From: an uncultured Gammaproteobacteria bacterium
GTDB taxonomy: Bacteria > Patescibacteriota > Patescibacteriia > Magasanikbacterales > UBA922
Assembly (NCBI GenBank): GCA_964603435.1
Contig: CAZRUM010000001.1
Location: forward strand, 27,045 to 71,420
DNA length: 44,376 nucleotides
Direction: 5' to 3'
Positions 3 to 27,484 of the stretch are shown here, in pieces. Numbering within the stretch: the first letter of the stretch is position 1; each line of letters begins with the position of its first letter. The position numbers and the translations under genes were made by a program. Under the pieces are notes generated by a model. It ran no database searches. It saw only the letters and a program-made list of their open reading frames with translations, and was not told the DNA's origin.

Positions 3-821
3 TTTCTTTGTCTGGAGACCAAGATACATTTTCTACGCTATGAAAAAGCAATTTTAGAATATCCAGATGGCTCAAATATTATTTATGACTTCGAGACACA
101 AACCCAAGTCACTCTACCAAAACATTGGGAAGATTTTTCCTTTTCTGGAACTGGAGACAAAATTGCTGCCAAGAGCTTGGGTTTTTCCGAAGAAAACCAA
201 TGGCTCATTACCTCTGATGCAGAGGGTAAAAACATAAAACTTATTGAACCAATGGGGGCAAATGCTGACAAAGTAGAAGTCAACTGGTCCCCTAGCAACC
301 AAGTGGTGGCTCTATCACGCACTGGTGAAGCTTTGGGTTCAGATCGTCAACAAATTTTATTAGTTGGTTTGAATGGTGAAAATTTTCAAGGCCTTATCGT
401 TGAAGGACGTGGGCTAGTGGATCAATGGTCACCTCAAGGTGAAAAACTTCTTTACAGTGTTTATAATGCTCGTAATGATTATCAACCTGAATTGTGGGTA
501 GTAAATGCTTATGGAGATCAAATTGGAACCAATAGACGATTGTTAGGTCTAAATACTTGGGCCGACAAATGTACTTTTGAAAATGAGAGATTTGTTTACT
601 GTGGGGTACCCAGTTTTCTAGAAACTGGAGCTGGCTTTGCTAGACAAATAGCAGATTATACTACCGATAAATTAATAAAAATAGACTTGGAAAGCGGTAT
701 AAAAACTGAAATTCCTCTAAATAGTTCTCACACTATAGATACTATTTTCTTGGACTCGACTAATGAAAATATTTATTTTACAGACAAAAGTCAAAATGGA
801 CTTTTTAGCATAGAATTATAA
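3..821 (+). CDS. 5'-truncated beta-propeller/TolB-like surface protein
   Basis: Frame is open from nt 3 (…KAILEYPDGSNIIYDFETQTQVTLPKHWEDFSFSG…), so the 177 start is internal; repeated WSP motifs resemble TolB/PD40-like propellers. Confidence 0.6.
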   Translation, partial: FLCLETKIHFLRYEKAILEYPDGSNIIYDFETQTQVTLPKHWEDFSFSGTGDKIAAKSLGFSEENQWLITSDAEGKNIKLIEPMGANADKVEVNWSPSNQVVALSRTGEALGSDRQQILLVGLNGENFQGLIVEGRGLVDQWSPQGEKLLYSVYNARNDYQPELWVVNAYGDQIGTNRRLLGLNTWADKCTFENERFVYCGVPSFLETGAGFARQIADYTTDKLIKIDLESGIKTEIPLNSSHTIDTIFLDSTNENIYFTDKSQNGLFSIEL

Positions 822-898
822 AGATAATTTTTTTGTAATTTTATTTTTTTCATATTTAATATATTATTAATTAGCAATTTATTTATCTCTAAAATCTT

Positions 899-1546
899 AT
901 GATAAAAATAAGAACTTTATTACTCATCCTCATCCCTGCTTTTATCATCTTAGCATTGGCTATGTTTGTACGCATACTCCAATTCCAATCTATAACCCCT
1001 TCTGAAAAAGAAATTGAAAAATGGGCAGATGCTAAAAATTTTACCATCCCCCTTTACAAGGAAGACCCTATTATTGGTAACAGCAGAGTAGGTATCAATA
1101 TAGTAATATTTGAAGACTTTAATTGCGCAGCCTGTAAAGTACAAAATACATTATTAAAAAAGCTAGTCAATAAATATCCAGACAAAGTAAAAATAATCTG
1201 GAAAGGCTTATCCTCAGCAGGATTCCCCTACCCCACTGAAATGGCGCACAGCTACAGCTACTGTGCCAATGAACAAAATAAATTTATAGAATTCAAAGAC
1301 TTTGCTTTTGTTAACAGTGATAATCTTTCAGAAGATACACTAAACTTAATTATAGAAAATATTGATATAAATCTAAATAAATTTGAAAAATGTCTTCAGT
1401 CAGATTCACCTGCCATTCACTTACAAAAAAACGAAATAATTGCCCAAGCACTCAATATTCAAAATATTCCTACCGCTTTTATAAATAACAAACAAATTCA
1501 AATACCATCTTTACTTGAAGGTTGGGAAACATTATTATCATTATAA
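899..1546 (+). CDS. Membrane-anchored DsbA-family thioredoxin-fold protein
   Basis: N-terminal TM segment, FEDFNCAAC CxxC motif, C-terminal IPTAFIN cis-Pro loop. Confidence 0.85.
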   Translation: MIKIRTLLLILIPAFIILALAMFVRILQFQSITPSEKEIEKWADAKNFTIPLYKEDPIIGNSRVGINIVIFEDFNCAACKVQNTLLKKLVNKYPDKVKIIWKGLSSAGFPYPTEMAHSYSYCANEQNKFIEFKDFAFVNSDNLSEDTLNLIIENIDINLNKFEKCLQSDSPAIHLQKNEIIAQALNIQNIPTAFINNKQIQIPSLLEGWETLLSL

Positions 1547-1549
1547 ACT

Positions 1550-3373
1550 ATGCCTGCATTCAATAATAAAAAAAAGTTATTTGGATTGTTCTTAATACTA
1601 TTTTTTTTACTATCTTTTTTTAATATCGGACAGACCCAGGCAGCTAATAAAAAAGTCGCAGTTATTGGTTCCTCTACTTTTGACAGAGGTTGCAATACTC
1701 CTACTGGTTTTGTAAAAATATTAGCAAAGGAACTACCAAATTATAATTTCGTTTGTAAAGTTGGCAATGAAAAACTAGCCTTACAAAGCAAAAATTCTAC
1801 ATTTTTTTTAACTCAATTTCAAAATTATGTCAGTAATAAAGGATACGATGAATTATTACTTTATGCTGATCTAAATGGTCTATCTAATGCAGTTACCTTG
1901 AAAAGATCCCAAAAAAACCTCGCCACTATTATTCAATCTGCCAAAAGCCAAGGTATGCGTGTAATTGTGGTGGGGGCTCAACCAGCCAAAGGTTATGGCA
2001 AGGTTAATGACACATGGATAAAAAATATAAAATCTAATAACAATTTCCTGGCTACAAAACCATATAATATAGATATTTTTATTGAAGTATATAGTGTTGT
2101 TGACAAAAATAACGACGATTTTTTAGATGAAAATCTAACAACTGATAAAATTCATTTAAACCCTGACGGCAATAAAATTTTAGCCGACTTACTTCTAACT
2201 CAAGCTTATGGTACGGGAAGTACATCACAAATTCAAATTATACAAAATACAAGACCTGCCGGTGATAGCGAAAACGGTTTTCGTCTACTAGAACCACAAA
2301 CAGTTATTACACTACCTGGCTTAAACTTTACCCCCATAGATTTTGTCAAAAAATATAGTGGCATAGATGAAAGCGGTCAATATTTATTTTTTCCTTATAT
2401 CGGAGAATACTTATCAGCAATTTATAAATATGGCATAGTAGCAGGTGGTGTAGTGGCCATAGTGATGATTATTATTGCTGGTTTTCAATGGACCACCTCT
2501 GGTGGTAACGCAACTCAGACTCAAAAAGCTAGAACTAGAATCACCCAAGCTATAGCAGGCCTAATACTACTAGTTGGTTCATATTTTATACTCTACACTT
2601 TAAATCCAAACCTTGTCACTTTCAAAAATCTAAAAGTTTTATATATACCAATAGACAGCTTGGAAAGAAATGTGATTGTTAATAATGGCACTTTCAAATA
2701 TACTACACCATCTACTGGAATTGTTGGAACTGGCTCAGCTAAAAAAATAGAAAATGAAACTTTTGATGATACTTTCAAAGCCTTTGCTAATTGTGTCGGA
2801 GCTGACTGGAGAATTCTAAAAGCTTTTGCCTACAAAGAATCTAAGTTAAATCACACTATAGACAATAAAAGAGGATTTATAGGTCTTTTTCAAACCAATT
2901 CTAAAAATTGCCGTGAGTCTCTAAAAAAATATCCAGCATGGGCAGCTCTATGTGGTGACATGACTAACCCAGCAGTAAACACAGCAGTCGGCGCAAAGAT
3001 GCTTGGATTAGGTATGGCTAATATTGAAAAAAGATGTGGTGATATACCAAAAAGAGATGCCGCAGCACTATTTTATCTAAATCATAACAGTGGTTATTAT
3101 GCAGTTACCTGGATAATAAAAAATGGAAATGCCTGCAAAGGTGAAATTTTTGTAAAGAAAAGCATAATTGATTTTTGGAACCAACATAAAAACGGAATAC
3201 ACAAAGGAAAACTTATGGGTGAAATTAGAGGTCCTTATGCTTATGCTACGGCTGACCTAACCTTACAACTAGGAGTAACAGATTTTCATGATACTTCTGG
3301 TAACAATAACTTTGAATGCCCCTCAACGGTAGCCCTGAAGATTTTGAAAATTTTCTTAAAGCAAGAGCTTTGA
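1550..3373 (+). CDS. Secreted fusion: SGNH hydrolase + two-TM pilin (TrbC/VirB2-like) + lytic transglycosylase (SLT) domain
   Basis: Signal peptide; VIGSS and DKIH SGNH blocks; pilin segment AGFQWTTSGGN…KARTRITQAIAGLILLVGSYFILYTLNP; SLT motifs AYKES, GLFQ, NHNSG. Confidence 0.75.
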   Translation: MPAFNNKKKLFGLFLILFFLLSFFNIGQTQAANKKVAVIGSSTFDRGCNTPTGFVKILAKELPNYNFVCKVGNEKLALQSKNSTFFLTQFQNYVSNKGYDELLLYADLNGLSNAVTLKRSQKNLATIIQSAKSQGMRVIVVGAQPAKGYGKVNDTWIKNIKSNNNFLATKPYNIDIFIEVYSVVDKNNDDFLDENLTTDKIHLNPDGNKILADLLLTQAYGTGSTSQIQIIQNTRPAGDSENGFRLLEPQTVITLPGLNFTPIDFVKKYSGIDESGQYLFFPYIGEYLSAIYKYGIVAGGVVAIVMIIIAGFQWTTSGGNATQTQKARTRITQAIAGLILLVGSYFILYTLNPNLVTFKNLKVLYIPIDSLERNVIVNNGTFKYTTPSTGIVGTGSAKKIENETFDDTFKAFANCVGADWRILKAFAYKESKLNHTIDNKRGFIGLFQTNSKNCRESLKKYPAWAALCGDMTNPAVNTAVGAKMLGLGMANIEKRCGDIPKRDAAALFYLNHNSGYYAVTWIIKNGNACKGEIFVKKSIIDFWNQHKNGIHKGKLMGEIRGPYAYATADLTLQLGVTDFHDTSGNNNFECPSTVALKILKIFLKQEL

Positions 3374-3424
3374 TCAAAAAAGGACTTGAGGTAATAAGTT
3401 CCTAATTATAAATAATCAATCAAT

Positions 3425-6256
3425 ATGAAAACCAATATAAAAATATTTTTTTTATTTATATTAGCATTTTTTTTGATACCTTCTTTTGCGTCAGCACAAA
3501 CAGGATCTAGTCCTATTTTTAGCTTCGCAGTTATTTCTGACACACACGATGCAAATCAATGTGGCTCTAAACAAGGAAAATGGTCTGATATGGCAATTGA
3601 AATAATTAACACACGAAAACCAGATTTTGTTATAGGTGTTGGAGATTTAGTAGCTGGTGGAGGAAGTTGCCCTAACGGTGGAAATGGAATTGAAAAACAA
3701 TTAGAAGAATTCAAAAAGGTCTATCTTGATAAACTAAATGTACCTTTCATCCCAATGGCCGGCAATCATGATTTTAGTACGGAGCCAACCCATGCCAAAA
3801 CAGCTTGGAATAATTTTTGGAATAGCAATAAAAATAAAGTATTATCCAATGGAAGTTTTTCTGGATATCCCAGATCATATACCTTTACACACAAGGGAAT
3901 AAAATTTGATATTTTAGATTATTATGGCAACTACGGCTACAATACAGCTGAAAAACAATGGATAAAATCCAATGTAACCTCAGGAGACTTAGTCTTTAGA
4001 CATGTCAATCCGTATGGAGTAACCAACGCTCATTTTGCCATGAGAAGTACTGGTAATATAAAGGATTATGAACAACTAACAGAATTACTAAAACAAAAAG
4101 GAGTCAAGGCTTTATTCTCAGGACATACCCATGGTTTTTATGAAGGAATTTGTGACAACCTACATTTTATAAACACAGGTTCACTAGGTGCAAGAAGTAT
4201 GGAATATGCAGAAGGTATCCCCTCTGAATTCCAAAAAAAACAAGCTTTTGTTTGGGTAGACGTTTTATCTGGTGGAGCTATTGATGTTTCTTTTTACTAT
4301 TACAACGGAACAGGATTAGTAAAATTTGATAAAACCAACTTTCCTAAAACAATTGAAGCAAAAAAAATTACTAGAACTAAAGATGGAAAAACTTTTTATG
4401 AAGGTGTTGCAGCAACATGTAAAAGAGTAGATTCACTCGTACAAACAGCTGGTAGTCAAAAAATCTTAATGATCGGAGACTCTCATTCTGCACATTATTT
4501 TTACGGAAAACATTTACACAAACTTATTAGAGAAGCTGGTTTTCAAGTAAAATTATACGGTATTGGTGGAACTACTTCTAAAAGTTGGATGTCTGGTAAA
4601 AAAGGAACAGGGAAACTCATATCAAGTGTTCATGCTGACGAGCAAGGAATCATTACGCCCCTACCAACTGGAGAGACGTACACACTTAAAAACCTAAAAG
4701 AAACTTACAAACCAGATACGGTTATTATTTCATTAGGAAGTAATGAAGTCCCAAAAGAAGACTCTTTTTTCTCCACTTTTGATGCCCCATTAGCAGAAAT
4801 AGCTGCTACAGGTGCGAAATGTTATTGGGTTGGTCCTCCAAAAATCACAAGAAAAGGTTTTGAAAAATTTCAAGAAACCTCTACTAAAATAAAAGCAATA
4901 GCTGAAAGCAAGGGGTGTACATTTATTGATTCTATTCCACTAAGTGATGACAGTCTTCTAAAAGCCGACGGGATTCATTATACTCAGCCCGGTGGAGAAC
5001 AATGGGCAGCAAAAGTATTTGCACAATTAAATTTAACACAAAATCTAATCTATAGCACAAGCAAATCTGTCATAAGTCAAATGACTATAGATGAAGTGAA
5101 AGAATTATTGAGAACACCATCCACAAAAATAACTATACCTGGTCTAAATTTCTCCACAAAAGAAGAAGTCTCCAAAATGGTAACTGATGAAAACGGAAAT
5201 TTTTATATTCATATACCATTTTTAGCAGAATATCTCGTTGCCATTTATAAATATGGTATTATAGCTGGTGGAGTAATTGCCATTGTCATGTTGGTGATCC
5301 AGGGTTTTAGTTTGGTAACATCTGGAGGAAATTCTACAAAAACAAGTGAAGCCAAGAAAAAAATTGGTAACTTAGCGATTGGTTTTCTATTACTAATCGG
5401 ATCATATTTAATACTTTATATAATAAACCCCCAACTTCTAACTTTAAAAAGTTTAAAGGTGCTTTATGTAAAAGAACTCACAGTAGATGCGGCCATGGAA
5501 AATACTGATATGCCAGATGGTGGACCAATCATACAATTTGGAGGGGCAAATATACAATTCAATAACACAGAAATTGATGGACTCAAAAAGAAAAGTGATT
5601 ATAATTGCTCTCCTCAAGATATTGCTGATGTTGGACATGCTTATGGTCAAGCTGGTATTTGCCTTCGACCAAAAACTTGTGCGTCTACTATTTCTTTTTT
5701 ATTAAATAGAGCTGGTTGTAAAAAAAAAGATGGCAGTGAATTTACTGGTATTACTTCTTCAAAAGCCTTGGGAGGATTGACAGAACAAGAGATGGGTTGG
5801 ATAAAAAAAGACATAAGACAAATGAAACCGGATCAACTAAAAAATTTGCCGGTTGGTGTTTTATTTAAACCACTACATCACTCTGGTTTGCACATAGGGA
5901 AGGGTAAGATGGTAGAATCATCTTATGGTATAACACCTCTTATTGAATTTTCAAAACCAAAATCACTTTGGAAACAGATAAAAACTAATTTACCAACTTT
6001 AACAGGTATAAATAACCGTCCTAATGATTTAGAAAAAATCAAAGCAATAGATAAAGCTACACTTATACCAAATAACAACTGTCCTATACACGCAGAAAAT
6101 TCTCAAAAATATCCAAAATTATGTGAATATTGCGACGCTATCCCGAAGCTATCCCCCACATTAGGTCCTCAAGGCAACGGCTATATAAATCATTATCTTT
6201 TTGAAAGTGGTGTGACAAGAATGGACCAATTTGATTTTCTATATTACAAACCCTAA
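3425..6256 (+). CDS. Secreted fusion: metallophosphoesterase + SGNH hydrolase + two-TM pilin + putative NlpC/P60-like cysteine peptidase
   Basis: Signal peptide; DTH, GDLV, GNHD, GHTH motifs; GDSH, GSNE, DGIH SGNH blocks; pilin segment; TCASTIS…HSGLHIGKGKMVES Cys/His pattern (weakest call). Confidence 0.72.
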   Translation: MKTNIKIFFLFILAFFLIPSFASAQTGSSPIFSFAVISDTHDANQCGSKQGKWSDMAIEIINTRKPDFVIGVGDLVAGGGSCPNGGNGIEKQLEEFKKVYLDKLNVPFIPMAGNHDFSTEPTHAKTAWNNFWNSNKNKVLSNGSFSGYPRSYTFTHKGIKFDILDYYGNYGYNTAEKQWIKSNVTSGDLVFRHVNPYGVTNAHFAMRSTGNIKDYEQLTELLKQKGVKALFSGHTHGFYEGICDNLHFINTGSLGARSMEYAEGIPSEFQKKQAFVWVDVLSGGAIDVSFYYYNGTGLVKFDKTNFPKTIEAKKITRTKDGKTFYEGVAATCKRVDSLVQTAGSQKILMIGDSHSAHYFYGKHLHKLIREAGFQVKLYGIGGTTSKSWMSGKKGTGKLISSVHADEQGIITPLPTGETYTLKNLKETYKPDTVIISLGSNEVPKEDSFFSTFDAPLAEIAATGAKCYWVGPPKITRKGFEKFQETSTKIKAIAESKGCTFIDSIPLSDDSLLKADGIHYTQPGGEQWAAKVFAQLNLTQNLIYSTSKSVISQMTIDEVKELLRTPSTKITIPGLNFSTKEEVSKMVTDENGNFYIHIPFLAEYLVAIYKYGIIAGGVIAIVMLVIQGFSLVTSGGNSTKTSEAKKKIGNLAIGFLLLIGSYLILYIINPQLLTLKSLKVLYVKELTVDAAMENTDMPDGGPIIQFGGANIQFNNTEIDGLKKKSDYNCSPQDIADVGHAYGQAGICLRPKTCASTISFLLNRAGCKKKDGSEFTGITSSKALGGLTEQEMGWIKKDIRQMKPDQLKNLPVGVLFKPLHHSGLHIGKGKMVESSYGITPLIEFSKPKSLWKQIKTNLPTLTGINNRPNDLEKIKAIDKATLIPNNNCPIHAENSQKYPKLCEYCDAIPKLSPTLGPQGNGYINHYLFESGVTRMDQFDFLYYKP

Positions 6257-6275
6257 TTAAAATAATTAAAAAAAC

Positions 6276-6345
6276 AAAAACCGCCCCTTTCCTCCTTGCT
6301 TTATTTCTAAAACTTTAGAAACAAGGCAAGTTGTGGGCGGTTTTT
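6276..6345. terminator. Long bidirectional hairpin between convergent units
   Basis: AAAAACCGCCC (6276-86) pairs with GGGCGGTTTTT (6335-45); inner CCTTG/CAAGG and TTTCTAA/TTAGAAA arms. Confidence 0.65.
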
Positions 6346-6431
6346 ATACTACCCACAACTCTCGAATGAGCCAGGAGGCTCGATGAGGATGTTGTGGGGG
6401 GGGGTGGTGTGAGATAGCACCAACAAAGAAA

Positions 6432-6638
6432 CTACTGAGTGGGGAGGACGGCGACCTGGGAGGTCTCGACCTGGGGGACGAAGACCTTTTTCTTCACGAA
6501 ACCTCTTTGCGGGTACTTGATCCTGTGATCAGATACCCCCATTCCCTGCGCTCTCTCCGCCGTAGTGAGAAAACCTCCACTACCAGTATCTACGCTCACA
6601 GTACGAATGTCTGTCATTTTTACCTTGCTTCCTGACAT
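6432..6638 (-). CDS. Small hypothetical protein (68 aa), GC-richer than flanks
   Basis: ATG ORF with its own upstream promoter and downstream structured terminator; no recognisable motif. Confidence 0.5.
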   Translation of the reverse strand: MSGSKVKMTDIRTVSVDTGSGGFLTTAERAQGMGVSDHRIKYPQRGFVKKKVFVPQVETSQVAVLPTQ

Positions 6639-6707
6639 TTACAACAGCCCTTCACTGACCCCACACATGTGGAATAAGCAAAAAAGCCTTCACCAAAACT
6701 TCGTCAA

Positions 6708-6736
6708 ATATTATCATAAAAAAAATCTCCTGTCAA
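6708..6736 (-). promoter_or_regulatory. sigma70-type promoter for the 68-aa ORF
   Basis: TTGACA-17 nt-TAATAT with extended -10 TGn. Confidence 0.65.
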
Positions 6737-6746
6737 GACCAAAACA

Positions 6747-6773
6747 AAAGATTATCTCTGTGAGATAATCTTT
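6747..6773 (-). terminator. Hairpin downstream of recG
   Basis: AAAGATTATCTC-TGT-GAGATAATCTTT perfect 12-bp stem followed by T-rich tract on the minus strand. Confidence 0.65.
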
Positions 6774-6805
6774 ATTTATATATTTTTAAATAAAAAACCA
6801 ACAAC

Positions 6806-8920
6806 TTACTCCAAATGAACTCCACTTTCCCACTCTTTTACTTTATCCTTTAAGGCTGGATTTTGTTCAAAATCAGTACCTTTTGCCAAATCGCGAGATA
6901 ATTTTATAAGATCCATATCTTGCAGAGTTGCCATACGAAACCCTAACGATCCACTCTGATTTTTCCCATACACCTCCCCTGGTCCGCGGGTTTCAAGATC
7001 ATATTCCGCCACTTTGAAACCATCGGTATTTTTTGAAAAGAAAGCTAATCTCTCAAGTGCTTTGTCATTGTCTGTATCTGTAAAAAGAAAACAATAGGAC
7101 TGATACACACTTCTCCCCACTCGCCCACGAAACTGATGAAGCTGAGCTAAACCAAATCTCTCTGCGCCCTCTATCATCATTACACTAGCATTAGGAATAT
7201 CAACTCCAACTTCAATAACAGAGGTGGCAACTAAAATATCCAAATTCCCATTAGAAAAGTCGTTCATAACATCTTCTTTTGTTCGCGATTTTCCGCCCAA
7301 GGCGGACCCGCCTCGAGCGGGCATTTTACCATGAAGAAATCCTACTTTTAATTTTGGAAAGATTTCTTTTGATAATTTTTCATATTCACTCATGACAGAT
7401 TTCTTTTCGCTATCTTCATTTTCTATCAACGGACAAATCACAAACACCTGTCTCCCCTCACCCACCTGCGTTTCAATAAATTTATAAGCTTGGGTGCGTT
7501 TGTTTGGTGGAACAAATTTTGTCTCAATTGGTTTTCTGCCTTGTGGTAGTTGATTGATAATAGATAAATCTAAATCACCATAAAGAGTAAGAGCAAACGA
7601 ACGTGGGATTGGTGTCGCTGTCATAGAGAGAAAATGTGGCATAGTATTTTCATCTCCCGACTTTTCACTAATAGTTTTTCTCTGTTCCACACCGAAGCGA
7701 TGTTGTTCATCGACAATTACAAGTCCAAGATTTTTAAATTCAACCTTGTCTGACAACAGTGCATGTGTACCAACAACAACATCAACTTCCCCTTCTTTTA
7801 TCTTTTTTATCACTTCCCTCTTCTGCCCTGCTTTTGTTTTTTCTGCAGATTCAAAACCAGAAATTACAGATTGGGTACGTGTAAAAATACTTATCTTTGC
7901 TTTATCACCCAGGAGTTTTACGAACCCATCATAATGTTGCTTTGCCAAAATTTCTGTCGGCGCCATTATCACAGTCTGATTTTTATTCAAAATTGTGTTG
8001 TACATGTTAATTGCTGCGACCACAGTCTTACCAGAACCAACATCTCCCTCAAGTAAACGATTCATCGGTTCAGTATTTTCTAAATCTTTTAATATTTCCC
8101 AAGTAGATACTTTTTGAGCTTTTGTTAATTCAAATGGTAAATTTCTAACAAATTCCTTAATATCTTTTTCTTGAAATTTTAATGGTATTGCATTTGATCT
8201 TTTTAGAGACTGACGAATCATCTCAGAGCGAAGCTGCATGATATAGAGCTCACCAAACTTAAGACGACGCTCTGATTGTTTTAGATCAACTTCGTCAACT
8301 GGAAAATGGACCCCACGCACAGCGTCAGCTAGTGGAATTAAATCAGCCTTTTCTAAAATACTCTCTGGCAACCACTCCTCTATCACATCTACTTTATCTA
8401 TAATTTGTTTGGTCAGAAAACGCAACTGCTTGTGAGAAATACCAGAAGTAAGATGATACATTGGTATAATTCTAGCGGTATGCGTTGTTTCTTTTTCTCC
8501 TCTCGCCTTTTGTCCTGTCTCTTTTTCATAATTAGGTGAAGTCATTTGCAAACCCATTTTACCATCACTAATTTTTCCAGATAAATATATTGTGTCCCCT
8601 GGTTTTATTATTTTTTTTATAAATGGTTGCCCAAACCAAATAACCTTGAGTCTGCCAGACTCGTCAGTCACAATCGCATCAGTCATATTTGTCTTATTCT
8701 TCCACAAACGACGACTTTCAATTATTTCTACTTTGCCACGCACTGTCACCACTTCGCCCACTTCCAAATCATCAATCATCTTACATTTACTATAATCCTC
8801 ATAACGAAAAGGTAAATAAAAAAACAGATCTTGGACACATCTAATACCAAGCTTTTTTAAAGTTTTATCTAACTTCTTTGCAATATGACTGATTTCTGAA
8901 ATTGGTGTTTCTAATTTCAT
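6806..8920 (-). CDS. recG: ATP-dependent DNA helicase RecG
   Basis: RLLEGDVGSGKT, DEQHRFG, TATPIPR, QLHQFRGRVGR; start reassigned to ATG 8920 (MKLETP) because the longer ORF runs through a tRNA. Confidence 0.96.
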   Translation of the reverse strand: MKLETPISEISHIAKKLDKTLKKLGIRCVQDLFFYLPFRYEDYSKCKMIDDLEVGEVVTVRGKVEIIESRRLWKNKTNMTDAIVTDESGRLKVIWFGQPFIKKIIKPGDTIYLSGKISDGKMGLQMTSPNYEKETGQKARGEKETTHTARIIPMYHLTSGISHKQLRFLTKQIIDKVDVIEEWLPESILEKADLIPLADAVRGVHFPVDEVDLKQSERRLKFGELYIMQLRSEMIRQSLKRSNAIPLKFQEKDIKEFVRNLPFELTKAQKVSTWEILKDLENTEPMNRLLEGDVGSGKTVVAAINMYNTILNKNQTVIMAPTEILAKQHYDGFVKLLGDKAKISIFTRTQSVISGFESAEKTKAGQKREVIKKIKEGEVDVVVGTHALLSDKVEFKNLGLVIVDEQHRFGVEQRKTISEKSGDENTMPHFLSMTATPIPRSFALTLYGDLDLSIINQLPQGRKPIETKFVPPNKRTQAYKFIETQVGEGRQVFVICPLIENEDSEKKSVMSEYEKLSKEIFPKLKVGFLHGKMPARGGSALGGKSRTKEDVMNDFSNGNLDILVATSVIEVGVDIPNASVMMIEGAERFGLAQLHQFRGRVGRSVYQSYCFLFTDTDNDKALERLAFFSKNTDGFKVAEYDLETRGPGEVYGKNQSGSLGFRMATLQDMDLIKLSRDLAKGTDFEQNPALKDKVKEWESGVHLE
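7292..7322. repeat. In-frame GC-rich double-hairpin insertion in recG (PARGGSALGG)
   Basis: TCCGCC-CAA-GGCGGA followed by CCCGC-CTCGA-GCGGG, right after the HGKM motif. Confidence 0.7.
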
Positions 8921-8964
8921 AGTTGTATTGTAACAAAAAACCTCCTGTTTGGGGAGGGTTACAG

Positions 8965-9036
8965 TGCTCTCGCTAGGAATCGAACCTAGATCATCGGTTC
9001 CGCAAACCGACATTCTATCCGTTGAACTACGAGAGC
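8965..9036 (-). tRNA. tRNA-Arg(GCG)
   Basis: GCTCTCG/CGAGAGC acceptor stem, anticodon arm TCGGT-TTGCGGA-ACCGA, GGTTCGATTCC T arm; CCA not encoded. Confidence 0.95.
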
Positions 9037-9051
9037 ATATAAAACGAGAAT

Positions 9052-18883: not shown

Positions 18884-18888
18884 ATTAT

Positions 18889-18912
18889 AAAACAGACCGC
18901 GAGGTCTGTTTT
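18889..18912. terminator. Bidirectional intrinsic terminator
   Basis: AAAACAGACC-GCGA-GGTCTGTTTT. Confidence 0.8.
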
Positions 18913-19148
18913 TCTTCTCAATCCCACCCTTGAATACTCAACAGTAAGATAGTTGAAGGCACGGTCGACGGGAGTCGAACGTGCGGCTTCTACGCACTGA
19001 GAGCCTTCGAGGATGAAGACGTGTCGCTTCTTTTGCAGAAGAGAGATCTCAACAGCGTTGACCTGACGAATCAGATCGTTGTTTCACATACCACCCGAGT
19101 TTTTGTAATGGGATACATGTGAAGGTTGGAAGGAACGAATGCCGACGT

Positions 19149-19778
19149 CTAACCGTCGTGCTTCTGCTCGAGGAAGTCTTCAGAGGTGAGAGGCCCCTGA
19201 TCTTCTTGTTGAAGCATGACGTGGCCGAGCTCACGCAAGAAGATTCTCTGAGCGTCAACCGCGGTCTCCCAGTCGACACCGGCTATCTGCCCACCGTTGG
19301 GCAGCTTGCACCCAGCGTGAAGCACCAAGCCGACCGTGCCGACGAAGAGCTGACTCAAGTCACAGCCTTGAGCGATGAGATCGTACTCACCCTCATCCAA
19401 AGAGACTATCAGACTGTGCGGCACGAGATATGACATGGTCCAGACCAGAATCTGAACATTGGCAGGCCCGTAGTACGTCACGAACCAACCACCGTTGACA
19501 CCACGCCTCACATCAAGCTGCGTGTCGTGGTCCAGGATTCCGTCCATGCGAACACTGCAATCTAGAAAGACCCGATGGAGATCCTTCTGAACATAGCCGA
19601 CCCAACCGTCGACCTTCATGCTCACATGCCCCTGAACGTCTTCCGGAGAAATAGCCTCTTCCTGGTTATACCAAGCAAGAGCACTGTTGAGTGCCACCTT
19701 CGCCGGCCGGGCTACACCCTGCCAGACAACAAGGAGCTTACACAACTGACGCCAGGACACCCCTGCTGTAACTCGCAT
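19149..19778 (-). CDS. Hypothetical protein (about 209 aa) in a GC-rich patch
   Basis: Longest ORF in the patch, GGAGA SD-like site before GTG-ATG, upstream promoter on the same strand; no motif recognised. Confidence 0.6.
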   Translation of the reverse strand: MRVTAGVSWRQLCKLLVVWQGVARPAKVALNSALAWYNQEEAISPEDVQGHVSMKVDGWVGYVQKDLHRVFLDCSVRMDGILDHDTQLDVRRGVNGGWFVTYYGPANVQILVWTMSYLVPHSLIVSLDEGEYDLIAQGCDLSQLFVGTVGLVLHAGCKLPNGGQIAGVDWETAVDAQRIFLRELGHVMLQQEDQGPLTSEDFLEQKHDG

Positions 19779-20036
19779 CACTTCTCTCCATATCTAGCGC
19801 GCAAATCAATGTCACGCGCCGCCATGAGTTTTGAACCAATAGACCTAGAATTTCTAACTACCCAAATAAAATTATATCGAAATATAAATATATTTGGATA
19901 GTGAGACTTTAATAAAATTGAAATAAACAACCCACCCAACCAGACGGAGAGAGGCACAAAAAATAGTATTTTTAAGGTCAACTACCCTTGGATCTCTCCT
20001 TCCAAAAATAGCTACTACTGTAGATTGTAACGGCAA

Positions 20037-20065
20037 AGTATAGCATTTATTCTTGATTTTGTCAA
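20037..20065 (-). promoter_or_regulatory. Strong promoter for the GC-rich unit
   Basis: TTGACA-17 nt-TATACT with extended -10 TGC. Confidence 0.75.
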
Positions 20066-20074
20066 GCCTTACAA

Positions 20075-20172
20075 ATAAAAAACACCACCTACTAGGAGTG
20101 ATGTACTTTAGTAGCGGCGAGGAGGCTACCTCAAAACTATTTGTGATACCAAGGACCTCTTTACCGCTACAT
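20075..20172 (-). ncRNA. Candidate ~100-nt structured sRNA
   Basis: Promoter TTGATT-17-TATACT (20177-20205); GTAGCGG/CCGCTAC closing stem; terminator CATCAC…GTGGTG-TTTTTT. Confidence 0.55.
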
Positions 20173-20237
20173 CTGGAGTATATAAAATTCTTTTAAAAAA
20201 ATCAAGTGTGAATACATATTGAAAATATTATTTTATC

Positions 20238-20361
20238 AGCGAGCAACCCCTCCACCCTTCGGGCACCTCCCCTTAGAAGGGGGAGGAAACGAAATTCCCC
20301 TCCCTTTTAGGGCACACTATCCTTTAGGGTTAAGGGAGGGGGTAGGGGTGGGTTGCTCACT
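20238..20361. repeat. GC-rich multi-hairpin REP-like element
   Basis: Outer GAGCAACCC/GGGTTGCTC arms enclosing CCTCCCCTT-AG-AAGGGG and CCCCTCCCTT…AAGGGAGGGG hairpins. Confidence 0.7.
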
Positions 20362-20384
20362 AACAAAACTACCATTAAAATTTC

Positions 20385-20457
20385 TAAAAAAATAAACCCC
20401 TGTCATATGACTGGGGTTTATTTTAGGCTTTGAAGGTTACCTTTCCTTAGTATCACT
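20385..20457 (-). ncRNA. Candidate ~75-nt transcript (sRNA or leaderless 12-codon sORF)
   Basis: Promoter TTGACA-17-TAATAT (20464-20492); terminator AAAATAAACCCC-AGTCATATGACA-GGGGTTTATTTT. Confidence 0.5.
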
Positions 20458-20574
20458 AACTAAATATTATTATTATTTAACTACATTGTCAATAGGTGAA
20501 TAACTTATTTTGATACAAAAACTTGCAAAATTTAGCTAAATTTGGTACAAATTATAGTACAGTAAAGCAATTTT

Positions 20575-24305: not shown

Positions 24306-24387
24306 GCCCGAGTGGCGGAATTGGTAGACGCGCGCGACTCAAAATCGCGTTCCTCACGGAGTGAGAGTTCGATTCTCTCCTCGGGCA
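24306..24387 (+). tRNA. tRNA-Leu(CAA)
   Basis: GCCCGAG/CTCGGGC acceptor stem, CGCGA-CTCAAAA-TCGCG anticodon arm, long variable arm; CCA not encoded. Confidence 0.96.
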
Positions 24388-24392
24388 CAAGT

Positions 24393-25361
24393 ATGCATAT
24401 TTTCTTCGACCTACTAATAACGATTGGAATTGTAATAACTGCTTTACCTGCGGTTATTTTGTTATATTCTCGCAGTAAAAGAAAAAAAAGCTGGGAATAT
24501 AACCATAAAAAATTAAGTCTACTTCTCTCTCTTATTCTTTTGCTCGGAACTAGTATTTTATTGTACGGTAGTTTTGTTGAACCACAACTATTGATTACAA
24601 ACTATTACGAAATTGATTTAGAAAATATTGATGAAGAAATTAAAATTGCCTTTGTAGCTGACTATCAACTAGGAATATACAAACAAACTGACTGGACAAA
24701 TAAAACAGTAGACAGAATATTAGAATTAGAACCAGACATAATTTTGCTCGGTGGAGATAATGTAGACAATGCCAATTATGATCTGGAAGAACTAACTTAT
24801 CTGGAGCCACTAACTAGATTAGCCAAAATAATTCCAACCTACGCTATACAAGGCAATCATGAATATGGTGTTGGTGGAGGAAAATCAATTTACAATTCAA
24901 AATACCGTGTCGCTAATATGAGCCAAGAAACAAAGAAAAAATTCACAAGTCTTGGTATAAAAACTCTAGAAAACGAATTAGAATTAATTGAAATTAATAA
25001 TAGCAAATTCTATCTATTTGGAGCTGATTCCTTCTGGGCTGGAAAATTAAATTATAAAGTTTTAGAAAAAAGAAATTTAGATATTCCGACTATAGCTATG
25101 ATTCATAACCCGGCTTTTTATATAAAGTCTTATCCAAAAATGGATTTGGTTTTATCTGGTCATACTCATGGTGGGCAAATTCGTTTACCTTTTATAGGTC
25201 CCTTGGGAAGAGTTGACGATATTTTACCTAGTGAATACTACCAAGGTTTACATGAACTAGATACTGGCACAAAATTATTAGTAACGAGTGGTATTGGAGA
25301 GACTGGAACTAGGGCGAGATTGTTCAATCCCCCGGAAATTGTAATGATAACTATAAATTAA
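24393..25361 (+). CDS. Membrane-anchored metallophosphoesterase (YkuE-like)
   Basis: Two N-terminal TMs; GGDNVD, GNHE, HNP, SGHTHGGQIRLP, RLFNPPEI; start moved past the tRNA. Confidence 0.88.
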   Translation: MHIFFDLLITIGIVITALPAVILLYSRSKRKKSWEYNHKKLSLLLSLILLLGTSILLYGSFVEPQLLITNYYEIDLENIDEEIKIAFVADYQLGIYKQTDWTNKTVDRILELEPDIILLGGDNVDNANYDLEELTYLEPLTRLAKIIPTYAIQGNHEYGVGGGKSIYNSKYRVANMSQETKKKFTSLGIKTLENELELIEINNSKFYLFGADSFWAGKLNYKVLEKRNLDIPTIAMIHNPAFYIKSYPKMDLVLSGHTHGGQIRLPFIGPLGRVDDILPSEYYQGLHELDTGTKLLVTSGIGETGTRARLFNPPEIVMITIN

Positions 25362-26482: not shown

Positions 26483-27484
26483 TTATTCTGACCACTGATA
26501 ATTAGTAAGTGCCCACTTGGCAATATCGCGAGCTTCGGTAAAGCGAGCTTCGTGACTATCTGTACCCAAGACCACTACATCTACCAAATGCCCATTCCCC
26601 ACTCTCATACAAAAATTATAACCAGAAGCATTGATAAAGCCAGTTTTTCCACCATAAAAACGTTCGAAATCATGTTCTACCCAACCAAGCAAGAGCCAAT
26701 CTGTATTCCACATATGATGTGACTTACTTCTTTCTTCTGAATACAAATTTTGTTCTTTTGTCAACAATGCTTCTTGAATCTTGGGATATTTCAAAACTTC
26801 GTTTAATAAAATTACTATATCTGAGGCCGAAGCCACATTGGTCTCATCCAAACCTGTTGGGTCAGTAAAGTGGGTTTCTGTCATACCCAGTTCTCTTGCC
26901 TTTTGATTCATCCGCTCTACGAAAGCCTCTATCGGCCAGTCCAAAGCATTAACCAAAGACAAGATTGCCTTATTAGAAGACGCCACTAAACCGGCTAGCC
27001 AGAGCTGATCCAAAGTATATACATCTCCCTGATACACATGAGTACCAAGTGAATCCTCTCCCACAACCACAGTACTAGTAGTCCAATCCGGATGTTTTTC
27101 GAGTATCACCAAAACGCTCATTAGTTTGGTAATACTTGCCATTGGCCATTTATCATATTCTTGTTTTTTATAAAGAACCATACCAGTTTTCACATCTTTG
27201 ACAATCATACTGTGAGCACTAAATTGACTCGAATCTGGTATTTCTCCAGTTACCAATGGTAATTGTGGTTTTACTGGTAAAGGTGGCTCTACCACAATAT
27301 CGCCACCTATTTTTTCACCAACGTTTTGCAAAGGTTGCAAAACTTTATTTAAAATACTACTATTTTGAAAATCAATTTTTTGAATTGTAAAACCACCAAC
27401 AGCTATTATAATTACAAAAATAGCCACTAGATTTCTCCACGCGCTTGATTTATCTTTAGCAACTTCAACTTCTAAAAAATTCAT
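26483..27484 (-). CDS. D-alanyl-D-alanine carboxypeptidase (peptidase S11)
   Basis: ASITK (SxxK), SSN (SxN), GKTG; N-terminal TM. Confidence 0.92.
   Translation of the reverse strand: MNFLEVEVAKDKSSAWRNLVAIFVIIIAVGGFTIQKIDFQNSSILNKVLQPLQNVGEKIGGDIVVEPPLPVKPQLPLVTGEIPDSSQFSAHSMIVKDVKTGMVLYKKQEYDKWPMASITKLMSVLVILEKHPDWTTSTVVVGEDSLGTHVYQGDVYTLDQLWLAGLVASSNKAILSLVNALDWPIEAFVERMNQKARELGMTETHFTDPTGLDETNVASASDIVILLNEVLKYPKIQEALLTKEQNLYSEERSKSHHMWNTDWLLLGWVEHDFERFYGGKTGFINASGYNFCMRVGNGHLVDVVVLGTDSHEARFTEARDIAKWALTNYQWSE

Follow-up and report, generated by a model that had tools for sequence, protein, structure and literature searches.

A dsbA-led operon of a Magasanikbacterales genome joins predicted cell-wall enzymes to a hairpin homologous to VirB2-type pilins

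The operon and its proposed role

The DNA considered here (the window) is a stretch of 44,376 nucleotides of contig CAZRUM010000001.1 (assembly GCA_964603435.1, positions 27,045 to 71,420, forward strand) from a member of the patescibacterial order Magasanikbacterales, whose source genome measures 0.90 Mb in 48 contigs and is 97% complete. At window positions 899-6256, three co-directional open reading frames (ORFs), separated by gaps of 3 and 51 bases, encode a DsbA-like thiol-disulfide oxidoreductase and two large proteins, P0001 and P0002, in which different sets of enzyme domains are joined to one shared two-helix module that is homologous to type IV secretion system (T4SS) pilins. The succession of dsbA and such fusions is kept in relatives of the same order, while the enzymes carried by the fusions are exchanged between genera. 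The three genes are proposed to form a dsbA-led operon for envelope enzymes, and it is tentatively suggested that their products open and remodel the producer's own wall in a VirB1-like role, a reading that falls a little short of evenly balanced. The genes, with lengths in amino acids (aa), are as follows.

899-1546, + strand: gene for the DsbA-like thiol-disulfide oxidoreductase, 215 aa (from the ORF and Pfam)
1550-3373, + strand: protein 1 (P0001), 607 aa; signal peptide, SGNH esterase, linker and pilin hairpin, Slt-type lytic transglycosylase
3425-6256, + strand: protein 2 (P0002), 943 aa; signal peptide, metallophosphoesterase, SGNH esterase, linker and pilin hairpin, NlpC/P60-CHAP-fold domain

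The shared hairpin module and its predicted topology

P0001 and P0002 align by BLASTP over 197 residues (45% identity, E 2e-37) with nothing else above noise, and the hairpin module is the sole part that they have in common. The module is composed of a linker (IPGLNF... EY..A.YKY), a first helix, a basic loop (SGGN...K.R.R), a second helix and a tail (NP.LV..K.LKVLY), and many of its positions are more than 80% conserved in 154 family members. A shared linker and two-helix pilin module had been pointed out in an earlier note made from the sequence of the window, and the motif string given there fits the consensus of these 154 members. For the Pfam model T4SS_pilin (PF18895), P0001 (25.1 bits) and P0002 (20.6 bits) both score below the curated cut-off of 26.6, which the third paralogue of this genome (27.0) and many family members exceed. 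Ten proteins of the genome match PF18895, namely seven in an array on contig C35, one protein of 582 aa on contig C13, and the two window proteins. The C35 array includes three short pilins of 133-165 aa (39.8-43.6 bits), and comparison of the module alignment with these by hhalign gave a probability of 97.3% and an E of 2.3e-11 over 53 columns (module columns 59-111) that take in both helices and the loop, which establishes homology of the hairpin to stand-alone T4SS array pilins. Neither the linker nor the tail recurs in the short pilins of this genome, and no type IV pilin family was found among the Pfam hits of the window proteins. The same array (698-9039, locus L015) also encodes fusions of 399, 483, 229 and 518 aa, the non-pilin parts of which match no Pfam family, and carries a gene for a solute-binding protein in its middle.

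A hydropathy scan revealed in each of the two proteins a signal-like N-terminal segment and two central hydrophobic helices, and in 136 of the 154 family members the interhelical loop carries a net positive charge. The predicted features of a pilin of this kind, a signal peptide, two hydrophobic helices and a short basic loop, are therefore present in both. Because of the signal-like segment and the positive loop, both flanks of the hairpin are predicted to lie outside the membrane, which lends support, as a prediction, to the outward-facing topology that had been proposed for all enzyme domains.

Where two fusions stand in tandem, their modules tend to be alike. In a tree of 48 modules, 10 of the 13 tandem pairs formed sisters (support 0.56-0.999), and the median module identity was 54.6% within a genome versus 35.7% between genomes. 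The P0001 module is 49.6% identical to that of P0002 versus 40.3% to that of its cargo-orthologue in the relative G012, whose own tandem modules are 59.7% identical to each other. This comparison, drawn from a small sample of kin that are not independent and from a FastTree tree on about 129 aligned residues, hints that the likeness of tandem hairpins may reflect a common, lineage-specific constraint. Recent gene conversion between the two window hairpins was considered and rejected, given that their DNA is 54.5% identical (211 of 387 bases) and that only 49 of 129 third positions are equal. Since the hairpin is the only part common to the two paralogues, is strongly conserved, is homologous to T4SS pilins and is alike in tandem copies, it is interpreted as a specific module for docking or as a carrier, rather than as a passive anchor.

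P0001, an SGNH esterase joined to a lytic transglycosylase

The following features were assigned to P0001; here, as in P0002, the signal-peptide cleavage site was read by eye from the sequence.

1550-1642, + strand: predicted signal peptide, residues 1-31, T-Q-A before the cut, hydrophobic segment 10-28
1646-2215, + strand: SGNH/GDSL esterase domain, about residues 33-222, candidate catalytic S41/S42, N109, D199 and H202
2267-2653, + strand: shared module, residues 240-368; linker, helix 1 (294-312), basic loop, helix 2 (331-349), tail
2735-3358, + strand: lytic transglycosylase domain (SLT/GH23), about residues 396-603, from Pfam SLT

The SLT model scored 28.3 bits (cut-off 21.3), and the catalytic Glu lies in an E-S motif, as is characteristic of family-1 lytic transglycosylases of the SLT/GH23 type. 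E430-S431 and G445-L-F-Q448 are invariant in the orthologues, as are six Cys. When the SLT domain alone was used as a profile, the best match among solved sequences was T7 gp16 (E 2.6e-5, about 80 residues, with the E-S motif aligned), and phiKZ gp144, Slt70, EtgA and MltF were matched as well. P0001 is the sole SLT match in the 97%-complete genome. A full-length orthologue is found at 42-43% identity (P0004; G012), and the closest full-length homologue bears the source name Candidatus Magasanikbacteria.

The Ser, Asn and Asp-x-x-His blocks of SGNH/GDSL hydrolases occur in both P0001 and P0002, with Pfam scores below the cut-offs (for P0001, Lipase_GDSL_2 at 20.8 bits against 32.9). In P0001, S41/S42, N109, D199 and H202 are invariant in six orthologues that share the SGNH-hairpin-SLT order, and a profile built from these six sequences matched solved SGNH hydrolases (E 7.7e-8), which include acylhydrolases of generic kind and esterases of TesA type. 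No entry named as an O-acetyl-peptidoglycan esterase occurs in the 37 solved sequences that this profile matched (E up to 0.1); an Ape-type enzyme would be marked by a specific likeness to Ape1 or by activity on O-acetylated MurNAc.

P0002, a metallophosphoesterase with a second SGNH esterase and a papain-like domain

P0002 carries a larger set of domains around the same module.

3425-3496, + strand: predicted signal peptide, residues 1-24, A-S-A before the cut, hydrophobic segment 5-23
3521-4429, + strand: calcineurin-type metallophosphoesterase domain, about residues 33-335, from Pfam Metallophos
4451-5017, + strand: second SGNH esterase domain, about residues 343-531; G-D-S-H at 351, G-S-N-E at 438, D-G-I-H at 515
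5090-5476, + strand: shared module, residues 556-684; helices 612-630 and 649-667
5585-6253, + strand: NlpC/P60-CHAP-fold (papain-like) domain, about residues 721-943, candidate dyad C752 and H819

Metallophos (PF00149) was matched at 68.4 bits (cut-off 21.5), and the full set of metal-binding motifs named for calcineurin-like metallophosphoesterases is present and invariant in homologues (DTHD at 39, GD at 73, GNHD at 113, H at 193 and GHTHG at 233). The nearest solved relative is a purple acid phosphatase (E 1.9e-3), a sequence likeness that says nothing on teichoic acid as substrate. The SGNH domain scored below cut-offs for Lipase_GDSL_2 (27.8 against 32.9 bits), DUF459 (24.8) and Lipase_GDSL (21.7); no variation in its G-D-S, G-x-N and D-x-x-H blocks was seen among four homologues, and a profile search found no solved relative for it.

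Residues ~690-943 gave no Pfam match at E up to 0.1, PF00877 and PF05257 included, and the C-terminal domain was therefore assigned from structure. An AlphaFold model from the single sequence was unusable (pLDDT 37.1) and was remade with a 17-sequence alignment (pLDDT 80.7, pTM 0.81). Comparison of this model with 48,161 representatives by VIA-align placed it closest to the NlpC/p60 domain of SagA (6b8c; Z 11.2, root-mean-square deviation 2.3 Å over 105 residues), and the best 28 rows (Z 11.2 to 8.0) were nearly all NlpC/P60, CHAP, endolysin, autolysin or wall peptidase structures. A Foldseek search of the PDB with the same model returned no match at E up to 0.001, its top rows also being NlpC/P60. 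C752 and H819 (C68 and H135 in domain numbering) are invariant in the 17 sequences, and Cys 728, 746, 765, 886, 900 and 903 are conserved too. Relatives of the domain score for Pfam CHAP (P0100, P0121, L055), and NLPC_P60 proteins were reached weakly by iteration. As modelled, the domain is a papain-like NlpC/P60-CHAP fold with a conserved Cys-His dyad.

All five enzyme assignments of the earlier note, including its guess of an NlpC/P60-like domain, are thus upheld, with catalytic residues conserved throughout and the E-S motif aligned to that of T7 gp16. Only one other protein was found to have the full architecture of P0002 (P0017, 66% identity); it was seen in none of 40 relatives of the order, in which the matches extend over the hairpin and in some cases over the C-terminal domain as well.

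DsbA and the cysteines of the fusions

The product of the first ORF combines the features by which a DsbA is recognized. It scored above the cut-offs for Thioredoxin_4 (61.4 bits) and DSBA (32.5 bits), has a hydrophobic N-terminal membrane anchor at residues 6-24 by hydropathy and an active-site C-A-A-C motif at residues 76-79, and has a re-oxidising partner, VKOR (83.7 bits), encoded in the genome; DsbB was not found in the genome search. The genome has two DsbA-like ORFs only, each directly upstream of pilin fusions. The second (259 aa, motif C-P-Y-C; G000 contig C13:13802-16337, - strand, locus L006) stands directly upstream of the 582-aa protein, a Cys-rich pilin fusion without a recognised enzyme domain, which is followed by uvrA.

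Every Cys of P0001 (8) and of P0002 (13) lies outside the hairpin. All eight of P0001 are invariant in the six orthologues, and seven in the C-terminal domain of P0002 are invariant or nearly so in the 17-sequence alignment. Among 134 family members with a single module, the flanks contain 3.0% Cys versus 0.81% in the long ORFs of this genome, the number of Cys is even in 158 of the 213 flanks that bear any, and Cys within the module itself occurs in 12 members only. The enrichment and the even counts point to disulfides. The link between the upstream DsbA and the Cys-rich fusions, first proposed on the grounds of their many Cys residues, is strengthened by these invariant, enriched and even-numbered Cys and by a gene adjacency that is conserved at 19 of 20, 12 of 12 and 5 of 5 loci, as detailed below.

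Conservation of the operon and exchange of its cargo

Both window proteins find matches in 40 of the 41 genomes of the order (the window's own included), mostly via the module, and 20 such loci were compared. The syntenic gene order is ClpB, HU, a beta-propeller protein, DsbA, the fusions and RecG. In 19 of the 20 loci the gene or genes of the fusions are immediately preceded by that of a DsbA homologue, two tandem fusions are present in 13, the beta-propeller gene is upstream in 19, and ClpB, HU and RecG are kept around most of them; the twentieth locus is of a paralogous type, with DsbA and a Cys-rich fusion. The cargo at this one site varies between genera and includes SGNH-hairpin-SLT, hairpin-SLT-SGNH, Exo_endo_phos-hairpin-Amidase_2, VanY, M15_4, C39-like, CHAP and GH18 forms, besides the NlpC/P60-like domain of P0002. 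At the second type of locus, represented in this genome on contig C13, the DsbA-fusion pair was kept in all 12 relatives examined, with uvrA beside it in 10.

Across the phylum, the module was matched at E<=1e-15 in 25 of 151 sampled genomes (the window's own included), and those matches that extend into the linker came from this order and class alone. Of 12 loci compared, the five from other orders of the class all have an adjacent DsbA, and none was found beside the seven from other classes (by a DsbA profile, on ORFs of at least 100 aa); judged from these loci, the coupling to DsbA is therefore a feature of this class and not of all pilin fusions.

Cargo across the hairpin family

A profile of the module retrieved 39,756 proteins at E<=0.001 from 1.84 billion representatives, 9,550 at 1e-10 and 188 at 1e-30; many of the weaker matches will be ordinary pilins. 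The cargo was surveyed in the 143 new proteins among the best 150 matches (Pfam at E up to 1e-4), and a domain of wall-hydrolase type was found in 81 of them, each counted once, or in 69 without Peptidase_C39_2, the wall role of which is unestablished.

SLT: 17 of 143 representatives
VanY / M15 / M15_4: 25 of 143
Amidase_2 (one also M15_4): 16 of 143
Peptidase_C39_2: 12 of 143
NlpC/P60 or CHAP: 9 of 143
M23: 3 of 143
GH18: 1 of 143

The other representatives had GDSL only (four), DUF218 only (two), or pilin only or nothing (56, polypeptides with several hairpins among them). In the 134 members with one full module, more than 100 residues follow the hairpin in 131, and more than 100 lie on both sides in 68. 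Polypeptides that string together 3 to 8 T4SS_pilin hairpins ('polypilins') occur among the best matches of the profile (P0041, P0049 and P0073; also P0025-P0027, P0030 and P0031).

GDSL was found in eight representatives, four of which also have SLT and none another wall-hydrolase family, and family-specific hidden Markov models revealed a cryptic SLT in two more, P0077 and P0095. SGNH and SLT thus occur together in two orders, SGNH-hairpin-SLT and hairpin-SLT-SGNH, a recurrence that fits functional coupling and so agrees with the pairing of an esterase with a lytic transglycosylase that had been noticed in P0001. In P0052, an alpha/beta-hydrolase (Abhydrolase_3 / steryl acetyl hydrolase-like) takes the place of the SGNH domain. 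A wall amidase or peptidase is also the partner of each of two unrelated phosphoesterase folds, Metallophos in P0002 and Exo_endo_phos in P0050 and L039.

The same survey bears on two further explanations of the fusions. One holds that they are scavenging ectoenzymes which harvest lipids, nucleotides or phosphate (the esterase and phosphoesterase domains) and muropeptides (the wall hydrolases), all of them building blocks that the organism would be unable to make itself, wall opening being incidental. The Metallophos and Exo_endo_phos families include nucleotidases, nucleases and phospholipases, the SGNH profile of P0001 fits generic acylhydrolases and TesA-type esterases and not wall-specific ones, and an alpha/beta-hydrolase can stand in for SGNH; in addition, nutrient acquisition in these bacteria is described as unexplained in the available part of PMC11665869. 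The commonest partners of the hairpin are, however, peptidoglycan hydrolases of every bond type and not nucleases or lipases, and most GDSL proteins carry an overt or cryptic SLT, which makes scavenging as the main function improbable.

According to the other explanation, the fusions are polyprotein precursors in which the linker and the tail serve as processing sites, so that the enzymes would be released in soluble form and a free pilin would be left for the pilus. In Gram-negative systems, maturation of VirB2/TrbC pilins involves cuts at both ends. Although the cargo of the 154 proteins differs, they have a conserved linker (IPGLNFS...) and a conserved tail (NP.LV.F..LKVLY), and polypeptides with 3 to 8 hairpins such as P0041, P0049 and P0073 suggest processing. 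Yet the operon contains no protease gene, a role in structure or docking would account equally well for the conserved linker, and the short pilins of this genome are without the linker, the hhalign match covering module columns 59-111 only. Little credence is given to such processing.

Which wall is opened

In the mechanism that is proposed, each large protein would be exported via its cleavable signal peptide and then held in the cytoplasmic membrane by the central two-helix hairpin, which is homologous to the VirB2-type pilins of the genome's own T4SS and whose short basic loop would stay cytoplasmic. Outside the membrane, the membrane-anchored DsbA, re-oxidised by VKOR, would form the conserved disulfides. 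P0001 would display an SGNH esterase and an Slt-type (GH23) lytic transglycosylase, and P0002 a metallophosphoesterase, a second SGNH esterase and an amidase or endopeptidase of NlpC/P60-CHAP type. Acting jointly, these could remove decorations linked through esters or phosphodiesters and cleave peptidoglycan in its glycan strand as well as in its peptide stem. The wall opened directly above the membrane that holds the enzymes would be the producer's own, which would supply the VirB1-type function that is mostly missing in Patescibacteria, let the T4SS pilus and other envelope-spanning machines through, and let the wall grow.

Several observations argue for the producer's own wall. Two helices are predicted to hold the enzymes at the producer's membrane, on spacers some tens of residues long, and the locus is chromosomal, core and syntenic across the order. 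P0001 is the only SLT match and no Amidase_2 was found in the 97%-complete genome; other wall hydrolases encoded elsewhere in it are three M23 proteins and one NlpC/P60 protein. Most VirB2-bearing Patescibacteria are reported to be without a VirB1 homologue, and VirB1 of Gram-positive bacteria pairs a lytic transglycosylase with CHAP (PMC12102498, available in part), a pairing that is here split over two genes. The genome also encodes an LCP ligase, a Mur ligase, a DD-carboxypeptidase and an Acyl_transf_3 protein, and its own wall may therefore carry the same decorations.

Other observations weigh against this assignment. The operon lies outside a T4SS gene cluster, the VirB4-like fragment and the pilin array being on other contigs, so that P0001 and P0002 lack the encoding within a T4SS cluster that is typical of VirB1-type proteins. 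Variation of cargo between genera is unusual for housekeeping autolysins and more typical of enzymes with a variable foreign target. For tethering, a single signal-anchor helix would suffice, and outward transport on a pilus would equally lead one to expect a pilin module. Among solved sequences, the transglycosylase is matched best by phage enzymes acting on walls from the outside (T7 gp16, phiKZ gp144), which is weak evidence. The likeness of hairpins within a genome rests on about 129 aligned residues and a FastTree tree, and could possibly be explained by independent duplications in each lineage. Finally, the topology, the enzyme activities and the substrate are themselves predictions.

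The earlier note had considered the two proteins as a toolkit with which an epibiont opens the walls of its host. Breaching in trans would entail stripping of decorations (O-acetyl groups, teichoic acid) and opening of the host peptidoglycan for contact, secretion or feeding. The change of cargo from genus to genus at a single syntenic locus agrees with an adaptation to host walls of different kinds, and the combinations found in the family, SGNH kept together with SLT in two domain orders and two unrelated phosphoesterase folds each joined to a wall amidase or peptidase, would suit such a task. The carrier is a pilin homologue, and VirB2-like pilins and the T4SS are reported as essential for epibiotic growth of a Saccharibacterium (PMC10633639 and PMC12857230, as far as their available text goes). 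The best matches to phage wall-piercing enzymes point the same way, and damage to the host envelope by transglycosylases of these bacteria has been proposed (PMC11665869, in the part available). On the other hand, two membrane helices and spacers of only ~40-70 residues put the enzymes under the producer's own wall, and to reach that of a host they would have to be drawn out into a pilus or released by proteolysis. Since the genome makes peptidoglycan of its own and probably also polymers linked to the wall, substrates exist at home; the profile matches to solved proteins contain no likeness specific to Ape-type esterases or teichoic-acid hydrolases; and no host is known for this organism. Of the toolkit proposal, the enzyme domains, their predicted position outside the membrane and the link to DsbA are supported and the host wall as target is so far unsupported, the enzymes being apparently tethered under the wall of the producer; a host wall is regarded as a possible, somewhat less likely target.

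The presence of a T4SS is of no help in choosing between the producer's wall and that of a host. A VirB4-like ATPase is encoded here and, this genome counted, in 36 of the 41 of the order, with identities of 67-85%; the five that have no match are 86-99% complete, and presence or absence of the system therefore does not separate the two, as judged from these genomes. The VirB4-like gene of this genome (contig C48:42-1463) is cut by the contig end, and its product is conserved far more than the pilin modules (35 relatives). In four relatives (G029, G032, G035 and G040), virB4 sits 7-8 kb from the dsbA-fusion operon. TrbL/VirB6 (PF04610) had no match in the genome, which in a 48-contig, 97%-complete assembly is not proof of absence.

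A bolder and rather unlikely idea is that the hairpin is a true pilin carrier and that the fusions are minor, cargo-bearing subunits which the T4SS would pull out of the membrane and build into, or onto the tip of, its VirB2-type pilus. Its consequences are taken up at the end of the text.

Relation to known systems

CwlT and TcpG are wall hydrolases of VirB1 type from Gram-positive conjugative T4SSs. TraG of pIP501 and PrgK of pCF10 belong to the same type (PMC12102498, available in part) and, like the window proteins as predicted here, are membrane-tethered and extracytoplasmic. In both cases a lytic transglycosylase or muramidase is combined with a CHAP/NlpC-P60 peptidase, and in the VirB1 type this combination opens the producer's own wall for the secretion machine. 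Here, by contrast, the activities are distributed over two proteins, a central VirB2-like hairpin replaces the N-terminal helix, SGNH and phosphoesterase domains are added, and the genes stand with dsbA in a housekeeping neighbourhood.

The pairing of an SGNH esterase with a lytic transglycosylase also has a precedent. In Gram-negative bacteria, Ape-type O-acetyl-peptidoglycan esterase works ahead of lytic transglycosylases; in P0001 the two activities are predicted in one polypeptide, which has no Ape-specific sequence likeness. The N-terminal transglycosylase of phage T7 gp16 (7eyb, 6yt5) is the best solved sequence match to the SLT domain of P0001, but gp16 is a virion protein ejected into the host envelope, has neither a pilin hairpin nor an esterase, and resembles P0001 over ~80 residues only.

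The closest printed concept is the modular type IV pilin, exemplified by PilB of Streptococcus sanguinis (PMC8179133, in the part available), in which a pilin carrier is likewise combined with varied effector modules and of which many architectures occur in candidate-phyla bacteria. Those pilins have an N-terminal class III signal and a single helix, whereas the present proteins have a T4SS (VirB2/TrbC-like, PF18895) two-helix hairpin in mid-protein with cargo at one or both ends, and their incorporation into a filament would be hypothetical. The kinds of protein behind the finding, modular pilins and T4SS wall hydrolases, are thus both known. The hairpin is homologous to the short C35 pilins, and these correspond to the VirB2-like pilin arrays described for Patescibacteria (PMC12102498 and PMC10633639, both available in part). 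Array pilins are short (~130-190 aa) and encoded next to virB4, whereas the window proteins of 607 and 943 aa have a fusion-specific linker and are encoded apart from the array.

The literature compared comprised the available parts of PMC12102498, PMC12857230, PMC11665869, PMC10633639 and bioRxiv 10.1101/2025.04.23.650224. No enzyme cargo is mentioned for VirB2-like pilin arrays in the accessible text of PMC12102498, PMC12857230 and PMC10633639. For S. epibionticum, short pilins are reported, and the authors' table, as far as it is available, gives no pilin domain for the lysozyme/peptidase protein linked to the T4SS. The accessible passages of PMC11665869 and PMC10633639 call the role of the T4SS in epibiotic growth completely unknown. 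No published description of VirB2-type pilins fused to enzymes was found in this literature, and the lists of VirB2 homologues behind PMC12102498 may include such proteins. Automatic cluster names of the ESM Atlas already pair NlpC/P60 or CHAP with T4SS_pilin, at scores of 0.87-0.88 (0.87-0.89 over all hits) and as leads only.

Other features of the window

Upstream of dsbA lies the gene that precedes it in the conserved order.

3-821, + strand: 3' part of the gene for a beta-propeller protein, an open frame; ~410 aa in relatives

This ORF has a weak TolB-propeller match (E 0.039). A split of the gene was considered and rejected, the break being a run of 10 N with identical peptide on both sides, as expected of a scaffold gap or overlap; it lies just upstream of window base 1 (G000 contig C1, ~26,620-27,050), and the orthologues (~410 aa) are intact in 19 of 20 relatives. 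The remaining window genes are of housekeeping type (RecG, LCP ligase, Der, Pth, DprA, Mur ligase, TopA, RelA/SpoT, ParAB, ScpAB, tRNA synthetases and others), and no T4SS genes were found in the 44-kb window. The six sequencing runs listed as containing part of this stretch include no RNA data set.

The one notable terminator-like hairpin is at 6747-6773, between the third gene and recG, in a sequence where counts of such hairpins are no higher than in shuffles. Between topA and relA/spoT, a stretch of 1.7 kb (18884-20574) has a G+C content of 0.44 versus ~0.34 around it; it contains no convincing ORF and matches no Rfam family, and no conservation was seen in 40 relatives. A short dispersed repeat at ~20217-20356 recurs elsewhere in this genome, on contigs C3, C17 and C1. 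The long ORFs 24312-25361 and 6806-9013 begin within tRNA genes (tRNA-Leu, 24306-24388, + strand; tRNA-Arg, 8964-9036, - strand), and the true starts of the metallophosphoesterase encoded by the former and of recG therefore probably lie further in.

Implications

No machine other than the T4SS with its VirB2-like pilins has been shown to be indispensable when a cultivated Patescibacterium grows as an epibiont. A large family of proteins that uses the pilin hairpin as carrier for peptidoglycan hydrolases of every bond type would provide a concrete link between such pilins and the cutting of walls. The fusions of this family have a dedicated DsbA and a place that is kept across the order, with their enzymes exchanged, and they supply objects for experiment, namely defined domains whose catalytic residues are clear, an operon of known extent and the conserved linker. 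They may also explain why most of these genomes are without a recognisable VirB1 (PMC12102498, in the part available). If the hairpin were a true pilin carrier, the pilus of epibiosis would bring swappable, disulfide-stabilised wall-cutting enzymes to the host surface, as an enzymatic drill-head; tandem hairpins would stay alike because both must fit the same filament, and the cargo would be exchanged like cassettes to match the walls of hosts. The layout that is kept while its enzymes are swapped offers a handle on how these very small bacteria open cell walls.

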